A stretch of 64,000 nucleotides of DNA from Escherichia coli (lineage in GTDB: Bacteria > Pseudomonadota > Gammaproteobacteria > Enterobacterales > Enterobacteriaceae), in assembly GCF_044324785.1 (NCBI RefSeq), contig NZ_CP172127.1. The stretch is one strand, 5' to 3'. Shown here piece by piece: positions 2,504-18,259 of the stretch; positions within the stretch are counted from its first letter, which is position 1; each line of letters opens with the position of its first letter. The position numbers and the translations under genes were made by a program. Under the pieces are notes generated by a model, which made no database searches, was not told where the DNA came from, and worked only from the letters and a program-made list of their open reading frames with translations.

Positions 2504-3199
2504 ATGTCAAACACGCCAATCGAGCTTAAAGGCAGTAGCTTCACTTTATCTGTGGTTCATCTGCATGAGGCAGAACCTAAGGTTATCCATCAGGCGCTGG
2601 AAGACAAAATCGCTCAGGCCCCCGCATTTTTAAAACATGCCCCCGTTGTACTCAACGTCAGTGCACTGGAAGACCCGGTAAACTGGTCAGCGATGCATAA
2701 GGCGGTTTCGGCAACCGGTTTGCGGGTTATTGGCGTAAGTGGCTGCAAAGATGCGCAACTTAAAGCCGAAATTGAAAAAATGGGGCTGCCTATCCTGACG
2801 GAAGGAAAGGAAAAAGCGCCGCGTCCAGCTCCCGCACCGCAGGCTCCAGCGCAAAATACAACGCCGGTCACAAAAACGCGTTTAATAGATACCCCGGTGC
2901 GTTCCGGTCAGCGTATTTATGCTCCACAATGTGATCTGATTGTTACAAGCCACGTTAGCGCTGGGGCCGAATTGATTGCCGATGGTAACATTCATGTCTA
3001 TGGCATGATGCGCGGTCGTGCGCTGGCAGGGGCAAGTGGTGATCGGGAAACGCAAATATTTTGTACGAACCTGATGGCGGAACTGGTGTCCATCGCAGGT
3101 GAATACTGGCTGAGTGATCAAATCCCAGCAGAATTTTATGGCAAAGCGGCGCGACTGCAGTTAGTCGAAAACGCTTTGACCGTTCAACCGTTAAATTGA
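2504..3199 (+). CDS. minC: Septum site-determining protein MinC
   Basis: Track ORF starts at TTG 2489; ATG at 2504 gives [14 protein letters not shown]..., the known 231-aa MinC. Confidence 0.97.
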
Positions 3200-3222
3200 T
3201 CCCTTTTTAACAAGGAATTTCT

Positions 3223-4035
3223 ATGGCACGCATTATTGTTGTTACTTCGGGCAAAGGGGGTGTTGGTAAGACAACCTCCAGCGCGGCCATCGCCACTGGT
3301 TTGGCCCAGAAGGGAAAGAAAACTGTCGTGATAGATTTTGATATCGGCCTGCGTAATCTCGACCTGATTATGGGTTGTGAACGTCGGGTCGTTTACGATT
3401 TCGTCAACGTCATTCAGGGCGATGCAACGCTAAATCAGGCGTTAATTAAAGATAAGCGTACTGAAAATCTCTATATTCTTCCGGCATCGCAAACTCGCGA
3501 TAAAGATGCCCTCACCCGTGAAGGGGTCGCCAAAGTTCTTGATGATCTGAAAGCGATGGACTTTGAATTTATTGTTTGCGACTCCCCGGCAGGGATTGAG
3601 ACCGGTGCGCTAATGGCACTCTATTTTGCAGACGAAGCCATTATTACCACCAACCCGGAAGTCTCCTCAGTACGCGACTCTGACCGTATTTTAGGCATTC
3701 TGGCGTCGAAATCACGCCGCGCAGAAAATGGCGAAGAGCCTATTAAAGAGCACCTGCTGTTAACGCGCTATAACCCAGGCCGCGTAAGCAGAGGTGACAT
3801 GCTGAGCATGGAAGATGTGCTGGAGATCCTGCGCATCAAACTCGTCGGTGTGATCCCTGAGGATCAATCAGTATTGCGCGCCTCTAACCAGGGTGAACCG
3901 GTCATTCTCGACATTAACGCCGATGCGGGTAAAGCCTACGCAGATACCGTAGAACGTCTGTTGGGAGAAGAACGTCCTTTCCGCTTCATTGAAGAAGAGA
4001 AGAAAGGCTTCCTCAAACGCTTGTTCGGAGGATAA
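3223..4035 (+). CDS. minD: Septum site-determining ATPase MinD
   Basis: 270 aa; deviant Walker A GKGGVGKT near N-terminus. Confidence 0.98.
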   Translation: MARIIVVTSGKGGVGKTTSSAAIATGLAQKGKKTVVIDFDIGLRNLDLIMGCERRVVYDFVNVIQGDATLNQALIKDKRTENLYILPASQTRDKDALTREGVAKVLDDLKAMDFEFIVCDSPAGIETGALMALYFADEAIITTNPEVSSVRDSDRILGILASKSRRAENGEEPIKEHLLLTRYNPGRVSRGDMLSMEDVLEILRIKLVGVIPEDQSVLRASNQGEPVILDINADAGKAYADTVERLLGEERPFRFIEEEKKGFLKRLFGG

Positions 4036-4600: not shown

Positions 4601-4670
4601 GCCGCAGAATTTTCCCTTTTAACACCCTGTAAACGAAAACTGCGCCGAAGCGCAGTTTAATCGTTGATAG

Positions 4671-5114
4671 TCAGAACGACCAGTTCGCACCAGCCACCGC
4701 GTTCCACGGGGATTCCACACCGGCACCATGGCTATACCCCACCCCGAGATGCCCGCTTAACGAACTGCTGAATGAGGCTTTAATACCTGCCTGATATATT
4801 CCACGTCTGCCCGACAAATCATTGACAAAATTACCGTCATTATTCACTTTCACCCGGTTATCATCGACAAATTCTTTGCGCACAGCCATTTTCAGCCACG
4901 GCTCAACTTCCATGCCGTTCCCCAGACGCATGTTGTAACTCAGCGTTGCACCCAGTTCACGATATATACTGCGGGTATCGACTGATTTCGATTCCATGCC
5001 ATTGGATAAATGATAGTAGCGTCTAAGTGACCTTAGCTCTGCTGCAACATCATCCCGCAGGCACCAGACCAGGGGATTGATCCTGAAGAGGCAGCGCAAG
5101 TGTATTGTGTTCAC
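4671..5114 (-). pseudogene. ycgI: Autotransporter beta-barrel C-terminal remnant (ycgI-like)
   Basis: C-terminal ~90 aa (...GIKASFSSSLSGHLGVGYSHGAGVESPWNAVAGANWSF) resemble the end of an autotransporter translocator, terminal F; N-terminal part of the ORF is not protein-like and has no signal peptide or passenger. Confidence 0.65.
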
Positions 5115-5416
5115 CGCTCATCAAAGACATCATGATGAAATAATGATATCCCGCATAAGAAAGAGGCATTTTTTAAACGCAGTGCGCTGAAATGTAGTTG
5201 GATAAAAAAATCACTCTTTTCTGATAATACTGTTGTACGCTTATTTTTCGACAATGAGGCCGTCGACAAAATAAAATGACTAATGTAATCGTTGCTGATG
5301 AATATCTTCTGCTCACATAAAAATCACACAATAATATTGATAAATCAGATTATCTTACCTTTACAACATTGTATTAACAGTCAATGACACTTCTTGAATA
5401 AAAATATTGTCAATCA

Positions 5417-15256: not shown

Positions 15257-15476
15257 TTTTACCTTTATCCCGCCCCTTAGACAGAATCTTATAATCTGAA
15301 CCCACAACAGCGTTTGTACCGGAGCTGGTCCGTTGCAAAATGCTCACCGGGAGAATTCAGGTAATCCCCCTTTCACACTTTGTACATATCACAGCCAAAG
15401 GACAGACCAGATTGAAGTGGTAAAACCGATCGTGCACACTACGCAGTCTCACAACTAACAAGAGGTTATTATCCTG

Positions 15477-15881
15477 ATGGATCAGGTTGTTGTTTTTCAA
15501 AAGATGTTTGAGCAAGTGAGAAAAGAGCAAAACTTCTCCTGGTTTTATTCAGAATTAAAACATCACCGTATTGCACATTACATTTATTACCTGGCTACGG
15601 ATAACATCAGAATTATTACTCACGATGACACGGTTTTGTTATTAAGAGGAACCAGGAACCTGTTAAAAGTTAGTACGACCAAGAACCCTGCTAAAATAAA
15701 AGAGGCCGCATTGCTTCATATTTGCGGAAAATCAACATTTCGGGAATACTGTTCAACACTGGCAGGCGCGGGCGTTTTCCGGTGGGTTACTGATGTTAAT
15801 CATAACAAACGCAGTTACTACGCCATTGATAATACGCTTTTATATATTGAAGATGTAGAAAACAATAAACCATTAATCTAG
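15477..15881 (+). CDS. ycgX: Uncharacterised protein YcgX, 134 aa
   Basis: 134 aa; position between bluR and iraM. Confidence 0.75.
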   Translation: MDQVVVFQKMFEQVRKEQNFSWFYSELKHHRIAHYIYYLATDNIRIITHDDTVLLLRGTRNLLKVSTTKNPAKIKEAALLHICGKSTFREYCSTLAGAGVFRWVTDVNHNKRSYYAIDNTLLYIEDVENNKPLI

Positions 15882-16092
15882 CTAAAGTTGGAAGCTTAAG
15901 AAATGCTTCATAATTCAGTAAGACATTAGCATAATGGAAATAAAAGTGCAGAGACTATCCCTATGGATGATAAATACTATCTTTTTATTGCCACCCATAA
16001 ATAATCACCAGGCCAATACTATCAAATTGATATTTGAAATGTGATCACTTGACTTTCTATACGTTATTTTATAACGGTTAACAAATTTATAA

Positions 16093-16140
16093 AACCAACG
16101 GGCGTGCCATACGCCCGTTTCAATACTTAACGCACATGTG
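16093..16140. repeat. Second copy of the icd 3'-flank terminator hairpin (direct repeat with 16959-17004)
   Basis: aacgggcgtgccatacgcccgtttcaatacttaacgcacatgt versus aacgggcgtgttatacgcccgtttcaatatttaacacatgt at the icd stop. Confidence 0.8.
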
Positions 16141-16582
16141 TTTTGGTTTAGTCATCATCCGATTATATGTATTTTAGTCAGGAACGGGTTTAACCATTCC
16201 TATATAACTCAAAAATTGAAACCTTATTCTCAGGTCATGCTTATATTCATCATTATCATTATATTAAAAGGCCAATCATAATGTTTTGCAAATTGGCACA
16301 ACATAGCATAAAGGCTATGTTTTAATTACAGAATGTTCAGTCATTTGAATGTATAATATTTTAGCTAAACAAATCTAAAACGAAGTGAATAATTTAATGT
16401 TTTCACTAAATCTCATTTTGTTTAATCTCTATTGAGATTCCTTGCTTTAAATTTTTTTTATATAGGTAATGACATTAATTTTTAATTAATTTATTTTTTG
16501 GGGAGTAATATACACATATGCAAAATCAAGAAATGAACATCCAAATGAACTATATTAAACACCGTGGGATAAGACATAACAA

Positions 16583-16906
16583 ATGAAGTGGATAGTAATT
16601 GATACGGTAATTCAACCTACATGCGGCATATCTTTTTCAGCCATATGGGGTGATATGAAAATGATCATCTGGTATCAATCTACTATATTTCTCCCTCCTG
16701 GAAGTATATTTACACCGGTTAAGTCTGGTATTATCCTTAAGGATAAAGAATACCCTATTACTATTTATAACATCACACCATTCAACAAGGATTTATGGAT
16801 TTTACTCAAAAGCAGTCAAGAGTGTCCTCCAGGAGAAAGCGAAATAACAAATAAATGTTTACATAATAGTTGTATTATAAAAATATGCCCATATGGACTC
16901 AAGTAA
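16583..16906 (+). CDS. iraM: Anti-adaptor protein IraM (RpoS stabiliser), 107 aa
   Basis: 107 aa, [23 protein letters not shown]...; AT-rich; adjacent to icd. Confidence 0.85.
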
Positions 16907-16958
16907 TGGGCTTCATATAAATATGCTCGACATGCTATTAATAATATCCACATAAATA

Positions 16959-17004
16959 AAACAACGGGCGTGTTATACGCCCGTTTCAATATTTAACACA
17001 TGTA
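16959..17004 (-). terminator. icd rho-independent terminator (first copy of the repeat)
   Basis: Directly downstream of the icd stop on the minus strand: aacgggcgt-ataac-acgcccgtt then T-rich tract. Confidence 0.8.
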
Positions 17005-17008
17005 GAGA

Positions 17009-18259
17009 TTACATGTTCTTGATGATCGCATCACCAAACTCGCTGCATTTCAGCAGCTTAGCACCTTCCATCAGACGTTCGAAGTCATAGGTTACGGTCT
17101 TCGCATTGATTGCGCCTTCCATACCTTTAACAATCAGGTCTGCAGCTTCAGTCCAGCCCATATGGCGTAACATCATCTCAGCGGAGAGAATAATAGAGCC
17201 TGGGTTTACTTTGTCCTGACCGGCATATTTCGGCGCAGTACCGTGGGTGGCTTCAAACAGGGCGCATTCGTCACCGATGTTTGCGCCAGGGGCGATACCG
17301 ATACCGCCAACCTGCGCTGCCAGGGCGTCAGAAATGTAGTCACCGTTCAGGTTCATACAGGCGATAACATCATATTCAGCCGGACGCAGCAGGATCTGTT
17401 GCAGGAATGCATCAGCAATCACGTCTTTAATGACGATCTCTTTGCCGGTGTTCGGGTTTTTAACTTTCAGCCACGGGCCGCCGTCGATCAGTTCACCGCC
17501 AAACTCTTCACGCGCCAGCTGGTAGCCCCAGTCTTTAAACGCGCCTTCGGTGAACTTCATGATGTTGCCTTTGTGCACCAGGGTCACAGAGTCACGATCG
17601 TTAGCAATTGCGTATTCGATCGCTGCACGAACCAGACGTTTGGTGCCTTCTTCCGAACACGGCTTAATACCGATACCGCAATGTTCCGGGAAGCGAATTT
17701 TCTTCACGCCCATCTCTTCACGCAGGAATTTAATCACTTTCTCGGCGTCGGCAGAGTCAGCTTTCCATTCGATACCCGCATAAATGTCTTCCGAGTTTTC
17801 ACGGAAGATAACCATATCGGTCAGTTCAGGGTGTTTAACCGGGCTTGGAGTGCCCTGATAGTAACGTACCGGACGCAGGCAGATGTAGAGATCCAGTTCC
17901 TGACGCAGGGCAACGTTCAGAGAGCGAATACCGCCACCTACTGGAGTGGTCAGCGGACCTTTAATGGCAACGCGATATTCACGAATCAGATCAAGGGTTT
18001 CAGCAGGCAGCCAGACATCCTGACCATAAACCTGTGTGGATTTTTCACCGGTGTAAATTTCCATCCAGGAGATTTTACGCTCGCCTTTATAGGCTTTCTC
18101 GACTGCAGCGTCGACCACTTTCAGCATGGCTGGGGTTACATCTACACCGATTCCATCACCTTCAATGTAAGGGATAATCGGATTTTCAGGAACGTTGAGT
18201 TTGCCGTTTTGCAGGGTGATCTTCTTGCCTTGTGCCGGAACAACTACTTTACTTTCCAT
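17009..18259 (-). CDS. icd: Isocitrate dehydrogenase (NADP)
   Basis: 416 aa, [38 protein letters not shown]... Confidence 0.98.

Follow-up and report, generated by a model that had tools for sequence, protein, structure and literature searches.

Results

The interval between ycgX and icd

We analyzed a stretch of 64,000 nucleotides of Escherichia coli DNA (contig NZ_CP172127.1), referred to here as the window, in which the genes bluF, bluR, ycgX (plus strand), ymgL, iraM (plus strand), icd (minus strand) and rluE follow one another. The features around iraM are collected in Table 1. The gene is convergent with icd, and its product is full-length, scoring 170.5 bits against the NCBIfam model NF007393 (cutoff 121) and matching PHROG 4407 with E = 4e-51. 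It is 93-95% identical to the common IraM of E. coli, and Pfam PF11183 is found on its relatives. In K-12, IraM binds RssB and stabilizes RpoS (PMC4045071).

Two direct copies of the icd terminator enclose iraM, and the 814 bp between them (the islet) contain only this gene and its upstream region. An earlier note on this DNA, made from the sequence alone, had drawn attention to the AT-richness of iraM between the copies and to an icd gene without adjoining phage genes. Both observations hold. The unique DNA between the copies has 29.4% G+C, compared to 49.1% for the whole window, and the gene calls of the window place no phage gene between icd and rluE, nor between icd and ycgX. Among the open reading frames and genes of the window, no integrase, excisionase or arm-type binding site was found at 16141-16954.

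Table 1. Coordinates of the genes, terminator copies and other features of the iraM-icd interval in the window
Feature	Position	Strand	Basis
ycgX (DUF1398), host gene of the left flank	15477..15881	+	Gene calls; matching genomes
ymgL, small ORF, host flank directly left of T_dist	15934..16044	+	ORF list; ymgL annotation in matching genomes
T_dist, distal terminator copy	16089..16140	-	Hairpin AACGGGCGTGCCATACGCCCGTT, then U-tract on the minus strand; repeat search, folding, terminator prediction
AT-rich iraM upstream region, 26% G+C	16141..16582	+	Composition; colinear, at 68-71% identity, with the region 5' of the ymgB-like gene in the long form
ymgK, small annotated ORF in the iraM upstream region	16282-16326		Annotation from K-12
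PhoP-box-like direct repeat TGTTTA-N5-TATTGA	16419..16435	+	Read from the sequence
22-codon ORF, 5' stump of the deleted ymgB/ariR-like gene	16518..16586	+	ORF list; ~12 initial codons alignable to the 5' end of the intact gene
iraM, RssB anti-adaptor, 107 aa	16583..16906	+	NCBIfam NF007393, PHROG 4407, Pfam PF11183 on relatives, RefSeq annotation
T_prox, proximal terminator copy	16955..17003	-	Repeat search, folding, terminator prediction
Stretch carried in the attP region of free icd-integrating phages	16956..17172	-	Matches of 28 phage records; phage 21 annotation
icd, intact, 416 aa, without inserted prophage	17009..18259	-	Gene calls and annotations

The two terminator copies form one family of direct repeats, which in ungapped comparison covers 16092-16134 and 16958-17000 (43 nt, 88% identity, spacing 866). 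When two small indels are allowed, the gapped alignment extends to 16089-16140 and 16955-17003, and the repeat unit is a module of 48-51 nt made up of the icd intrinsic terminator and its short flanks. These limits confirm the earlier description of a hairpin and flank 3' of the icd stop codon that recur as a direct repeat about 870 bp away. A 35-nt pattern with at most three mismatches matched only the two repeat sites in the 64-kb window, where none were expected (100 shuffles). Folding predicts a G+C-rich hairpin of 9-10 bp in each copy, and both copies are predicted intrinsic terminators on the minus strand, the direction of icd, with GTTTTATTTA as the proximal and GGTTTTATAA as the distal tail. 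Since the differences between the two window copies are confined to the loop and the tail, the stem is intact. The end of T_prox is 5 nt from the icd stop codon (17009-17011). This copy is the working icd terminator, and on the plus strand it probably terminates iraM as well. T_dist is read as the original icd terminator, now apart from icd; its left flank runs into the ymgL/ycgX host DNA exactly as in strains with an empty site (junction alignment, below). The flanks outside the repeat are no more similar than shuffled sequence (local alignment, 300 shuffles), and an icd remnant adjoining T_dist in the window was rejected by the same comparison.

Other kinds of repeat were considered and discarded. 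The repeat scan of the window gave no inverted repeats at the islet ends except the terminator hairpins themselves. A transposable element or MITE with target-site duplication is at odds with the lack of terminal inverted repeats, with a duplication of 48-51 nt, and with a module that occurs only beside icd. The module is present at 1-4 places per E. coli genome (median 2), every one of them beside icd or in prophages inserted in icd; these numbers, and the two copies in the window, do not fit a dispersed REP/ERIC-like repeat. Searched against Rfam, the module matched no family at threshold, with sub-threshold noise only over the hairpin. Our literature search found no paper describing the duplicated terminator.

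Occupied and empty sites among E. coli genomes

We surveyed 5426 complete E. coli genomes for the state of the locus. The two-copy islet with iraM is present in 3862 of them. Another 1037, Nissle 1917 included, have an exact empty site, in which ymgL, a single terminator copy and icd adjoin one another without iraM, and 19 have a longer form of the locus, described below. As read from the sequences, the empty site differs from the islet by an exact indel of the 866-bp unit. The proposal that iraM is a small islet is borne out by these counts. T_dist is neither universal nor identical within the species, so that the finding named in the earlier note as refuting its reading does not hold. The reported absence of iraM from CFT073 (PMC4045071) agrees with the empty sites.

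The left edges of the copies differ by a single base. The empty sites and the T_dist of K-12 have five A at this edge, and T_prox, like phage 21 and the Sakai prophage Sp8, reads ATAAAAC, with only four. In the junction alignment, the empty sites combine the host-type left edge with a T_prox-type remainder. The four-A versus five-A edge is consistent with a phage-derived T_prox, a small point that concerns a single base in a homopolymer.

Individual strains show further rearrangements at this position. In E. coli GPEC1352 (NZ_CM142780.1, 780-1500), which has no iraM, IS200C lies inside the A-tract directly left of the single icd terminator hairpin (TTTATA / IS200 / AAAAACAACGGG). The insertion edge corresponds to window position ~16089/16955, where the junction of iraM and the segment carried by phages end as well. 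The terminator tail is altered in some of the empty-site strains, such as E. coli strain 884 (3198-3245), where GTTACCGTTTTTAACACATGCAGAAA instead of GTTTCAATATTTAACACATGTAGAGA is accompanied by a phage-like icd 3' end; such tails would fit a repeated replacement of the stretch by phage-borne copies. In O157:H7 Sakai (NC_002695.2 1618292-1665532), Sp8 is at icd and the entire iraM-ycgX-bluRF-ymg region is missing. On its far side, Sp8 is followed by ompT, IS elements and minE, in this order. O157:H7 is thus without iraM and without the blue-light module at this locus.

The icd end carried by phages

The terminator module, together with part of icd, is also carried by phages. Matches to 28 Escherichia phage records, including phage 21, ev017, 1H12 and 4A7, run from window position 16956 to 17167/17172 (query positions 27-238/243). 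The phage-carried stretch consists of the terminator and the last ~160 bp of icd, and it adjoins int; in phage 21, the annotated features of this stretch are int, the arm sites of attP, a terminator and a pseudogene resembling ICDH (last 53 aa). Sp8 has int, three arm-type repeats, an identical hairpin and an icd 3' end, and its similarity to the window starts at ATAAAAC. The left edge of the repeat (16955/16956) is thus at one and the same place as the end of the phage-borne host-like segment and the end of the icd terminator U-tract. From these matches, we infer that the phage-carried stretch corresponds to the original extent of the duplication.

The likeness of the locus to phage 21, ev017, 1H12, 4A7 and Sp8 lies in an attP with int and arm sites, in the same hairpin (23/23 nt) with the last 53 icd codons, and in a host-like segment that stops at the ATAAAAC edge, as the repeat does. 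These elements differ from the islet in being complete phages, and none of those examined has iraM beside attP. The cargo of phage 21 at this place is sitABCD, an iron/manganese transporter whose sitA lies in the attP-adjoining arm (4635-5212). In the empty-site strain MS15046 (3243-6334), which has no iraM, icdC is followed by sitABCD. Because phage 21 has sitA beside attP and MS15046 has icdC and then sitABCD, sitABCD at the icd locus was apparently brought by a prophage of the phage 21 kind and takes the place that iraM has in the islet.

The earlier note had suggested looking for an 11-bp att core inside the repeat. The crossover core is found instead ~160 bp into icd (~17167-17172), where it is left on the proximal side only; it is not present beside both repeat copies, the right flank of T_dist in the window being without similarity to icd. 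The missing core beside T_dist would reflect a later deletion.

A connection of the repeat to the e14 prophage itself had also been considered. According to the summary in PMC6379469 of the work of Hill, Gray and Brody (1989), the insertion of e14 into icd duplicates the icd 3' end in K-12. The order in K-12 is ycgX, ymgL, distal copy, iraM, proximal copy, icdC and e14. Since K-12 has e14 as well as both terminator copies, with iraM beyond the icdC boundary, the repeat does not depend on e14, iraM is not part of that prophage, and the connection is not upheld. In K-12, e14 inserted later and separately, within the duplication around iraM, which is older. A diverged homologous hairpin is also present on the e14-borne icd end in K-12.

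As an arrangement, e14/icdC of K-12 is nevertheless much like the locus in the window: the target gene is the same, the element brings a replacement icd 3' end with its terminator, and the original icd end of the host is moved to the far side as a direct repeat. The displaced copy in K-12 keeps ~163-168 bp of icd, and the 15-kb element with its integrase is still there, whereas in the window the displaced copy has lost its icd part, integrase and phage structural genes are absent, and only 814 bp are left. A set of 29 'viral' contigs of IMG/VR starts ~1.1 kb upstream of the chromosomal iraM, and these are predictions of icd prophages that overrun icdC into the host. Such overrunning predictions may be the source of the description of iraM as part of e14.

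A long form of the locus that retains icd codons

A relative of IraM with 73% identity led to a metagenome-derived contig (L016) and from it to the 19 complete genomes with the long form, such as WL297 (L034), in which ~6.5 kb lie between ycgX and icd. In order, the long form contains ~215 bp of unmatched DNA, an upstream region like that of the window, an intact gene of the YmgB/AriR family (75-84 aa in L034/L016; 40% identical to the chromosomal AriR), iraM with its own hairpin, a trkG and Rz fragment (89.5% match to lambdoid phages), the remnant of an IS5, an ORF of 455 aa and an e14-type att arm. This arm, with 85% identity over 80 nt, is directly beside the T_prox of the long form. A later, unrelated integration could be the source of the trkG and att-arm part, as it is of e14 in K-12.

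In 17 of the 19 long forms, the distal copy is followed, in register, by TTA CAT ATT CTT GAT, the stop codon and last four codons of icd. The remnant, at the correct 15-nt spacing, contributes a run of 13/13 nt to a 66-nt alignment in which the distal copy and its flank are 81.8% identical to T_prox and the start of icd. The presence of these codons beside the distal copy indicates, therefore, that the duplication once reached into the icd coding sequence, which is the hallmark of integration by an element with a surrogate icd end. Among the origins put forward in the earlier note, an old site-specific integration that left its footprint finds its evidence in this remnant, in the empty site, and in the phage-borne module with the same left boundary.

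Alternatively, a small circular DNA (~866 bp; one terminator module and iraM) might have integrated directly at the icd terminator, without an icd-targeting phage, by a single homologous crossover or through an unknown hairpin-directed recombinase, and the 48-nt duplication would then be the whole of the original event. This would account for a repeat that in the window ends 5 nt before the icd stop codon, for a T_dist without an adjoining icd fragment, and for the exactness of the indel relative to the empty sites; in a strain without iraM, IS200C likewise entered the A-tract that borders the hairpin on the left. The long form, in which the duplication once entered the icd coding sequence, weakens this explanation, and so do a left boundary that is the same as that of the phage-borne segment and a module that is never found away from icd. 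A homology of 48 bp is short for efficient RecA-dependent recombination, which also counts against it, and we know of no such recombinase or matching circle. We regard the small circle as a distinctly improbable origin.

Between the long form and the short form of the window, the islet is diverged by 20-30% and the flanks by 4-5% (IraM 73% identical, upstream DNA 68-71%, flanks 95-96%). Divergence of the islet so far above that of the flanks means that the two forms may be separate acquisitions instead of successive stages of a single one. When window positions 15476-16130 are compared to the long-form locus L029 (8782-9226), identity drops steadily toward the islet: it is 99-100% in bluR, 92% in the 5' half and 83% in the 3' half of ycgX, and ~69% in the ymgL spacer. 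The YcgX proteins of the two forms are only 89-90% identical. With the islet at its centre, the gradient resembles that of a divergent haplotype of some age or of an introgression.

Reduction of the islet

A three-way alignment of the window, K-12 and WL297 reveals that the islet of the window is colinear with the long form and that the short form is interrupted by deletions. The first removed the icd remnant and ~215 bp that follow the distal copy. The second removed the body of the ymgB-like gene and left the 22-codon ORF. The third extends from the hairpin of iraM itself to T_prox, and the A-tracts at its two breakpoints (CAAAAAC and AAAAAAC) point to microhomology as the cause. Because the intact ymgB-like gene is truncated in it, the short form is the derived one.

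The stop codon of the ymgB-like stump overlaps the start codon of iraM (ATGA), and the 22-codon ORF is conserved in K-12; it could couple its translation to that of iraM. The PhoP-box-like direct repeat is conserved in K-12 and in the long form (there as TGTTTA-N5-TGTTGA). Its occurrence in all three forms implies that it was originally part of the unit of ymgB-like gene and iraM. Given the PhoP control of iraM, we take this repeat to be a putative PhoP site.

Unequal evolution of the two copies

We compared the two copies at 31 short-form loci, those of the window, K-12 and the 29 prophage calls that overrun the locus. The stem of the T_prox hairpin is constant in all 31, with a single loop substitution in one locus. 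That substitutions spare the stem, as the earlier note had stated, is true of the window, where they fall in the loop and tail only; elsewhere the stem of T_dist is altered, and across the set it carries substitutions in 26 of the 31 loci, with a true mismatch in K-12. This pattern of constraint would fit a working terminator beside a displaced relic.

A CC loop, CAATAC and a CG insertion are common to the distal copies of all 31 loci, and the short-form distal copies therefore descend from one ancestor. The distal copy of the long form has CAATAC, as in the short form, but it keeps a TT loop. Where T_dist has CAATAC, the sequence is CAATAT or TAATAT in every T_prox, at all empty sites and in all phage copies.

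These sequences bear on the possibility that related elements targeting icd, each with a ymgB-like gene and iraM as cargo, integrated independently to give the short and the long form, and that the iraM-less sites were never occupied. The divergence of the islet, far above that of the flanks, speaks for this, and a site-specific insertion would recreate identical junctions every time. We consider it unlikely. The forms are colinear from the promoter region through iraM, CAATAC is common to the T_dist of both and absent from all other copies, and the divergence climbs gradually through ycgX, like that of an old haplotype eroded by recombination. Independent integrations are a variant of the best explanation, with which they stand in no contradiction.

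The commonest changes in the T_dist stem are C-to-T, which preserve G-U pairing on the plus-strand RNA only, and T_dist may therefore still terminate ycgX-ymgL. It may have been retained as the terminator of these genes, a weak indication that derives from two substitution events. The same changes are compatible with a second terminator that arose as a useful local duplication or by gene conversion, insulating iraM or terminating ycgX-ymgL, and that is no relic of an insertion. Such an origin would explain neither why the empty site is exact and the insert foreign in composition nor why T_dist adjoins icd codons in the long form and the module matches that of phages, and it is hard to reconcile with the true mismatch in the T_dist stem of K-12. 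We consider it most improbable.

Relatives of iraM in phages

Lambdoid and Stx prophages have relatives of IraM with 55-73% identity, placed between Q or stxAB on one side and nanS-p or a holin gene on the other. They are read against the late genes, the phage records annotate them as anti-adapter protein, and they lie near the lysis genes, away from att. The DNA similarity of the window iraM to the phage copies is limited to the coding sequence, the flanks being unshared, and the terminator module is absent beside the phage copies. The 29 viral-contig matches that do have the module were set aside as prophage calls overrunning the chromosomal locus; they are not phage copies of iraM. The ymgB-like protein had no tblastn match in the phage collection, and among the phages and prophages searched none was found in which an icd-type attP adjoins the ymgB-like gene, the iraM allele of the window or the promoter region of that allele.

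As a small AT-rich gene of the same protein family, iraM resembles the phage morons, such as iraL in CFT073 and the genes for IraM-like proteins in Stx and lambdoid prophages, which have their own promoter and terminator and are embedded in phage DNA, read against the late genes. It differs from them in being chromosomal, fixed in most E. coli and without flanking DNA in common, and in its apparent expression from a region inherited from the deleted ymgB-like gene.

Two database matches were discounted. An 'IraM' of 73% identity (P0016) proved to be a frameshifted K-12 copy. A 558-bp contig of low coverage in the Oceanospirillum linum ATCC 11336 assembly (NZ_MTSD02000045.1) codes for the N-terminal 47 residues of IraM (98% identity) and is almost certainly E. 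coli contamination.

Strains without iraM and outgroups

The flanks of the window, K-12, Sakai and the empty-site strains are nearly equidistant from one another (97.3-98.6% identity), apart from the two empty-site strains, which are 99.3% identical to each other. Genomes with the long form stand furthest apart in either flank (95.4-96.5% identity, compared to 97.3-99.3% for the remaining strains) and still have iraM at icd. In a search of the GTDB species representatives with the IraM profile, the only matches were a prophage copy in E. albertii and the contaminant contig, with none at icd; the E. coli representative is also without iraM. Relatives of YcgX in Escherichia sp. E10V10 and E. albertii are at other loci or in prophages, and the outgroup contigs identified through RluE end at the icd stop codon.

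It is possible, and we propose it tentatively, that the iraM-less E. coli (~19%) are secondary losses by recombination between the terminator copies, with the 48-nt scar acting as a built-in excision device. The support is indirect: the lineage with the most divergent flanks, that of the long form, has iraM, and the hybrid edge of the empty sites would be the expected product of a crossover between the copies. A site that was never occupied would show the same empty-site sequence, and recombination at the locus is evidently frequent.

Discussion

The two terminator copies around iraM are probably the attL/attR-type duplication that arose when a temperate element specific for icd, of the phage 21/e14 type, integrated long ago; the element would since have been reduced to iraM. 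Because the window has no integrase, arm-type sites or icd fragment beside T_dist, the case rests on other genomes. The small circle, independent integrations and local duplication were rated lower because the icd codons beside the distal copy and the boundary shared with phages are left unexplained. The reading offered in the earlier note was essentially right, save for the link to e14 and the att core within the repeat, and the empty sites, the phage module and the long form now stand as evidence for it.

The history that we propose would run as follows. Elements of the phage 21/e14 type recombine ~160 bp inside the icd 3' end and bring a substitute for this stretch together with the icd terminator. 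Integration of such an element would have left the phage-borne icd end and terminator on the working icd, T_prox then being of phage origin, and the original icd 3' end and terminator of the host would have been displaced to the ycgX side as T_dist. A single phage integration would thereby have brought iraM in, although the gene may instead have joined the remnant at a later time. T_dist would then have lost its icd fragment, and at least three deletions would have whittled the element down to 814 bp, comprising the promoter region, the ymgB-like stump and iraM.

IraM is one of the three classical anti-adaptors that set the stability of RpoS in E. coli. If the secondary loss outlined above is true, it removed a PhoP-linked stabilizer of RpoS from a major lineage of extraintestinal pathogens, leaving these strains to rely on prophage-borne relatives such as iraL. 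The gene has been placed on the e14 prophage (PMC4045071). The presence of the repeat and of iraM in genomes without e14, and their position outside e14 in K-12, is contrary to this placement. The copy number of the terminator (0, 1 or 2) offers a simple typing marker for this lineage-variable locus, and the iraM upstream region is identified as the heritage of a deleted ymgB-like gene.

The scar is of a well-known type, a further example at a well-known gene, and entails no new mechanism. iraM would most simply be the last surviving cargo of an older prophage at the same icd attachment site, which provides a concrete history for how a phage gene may become fixed in a core stress network.
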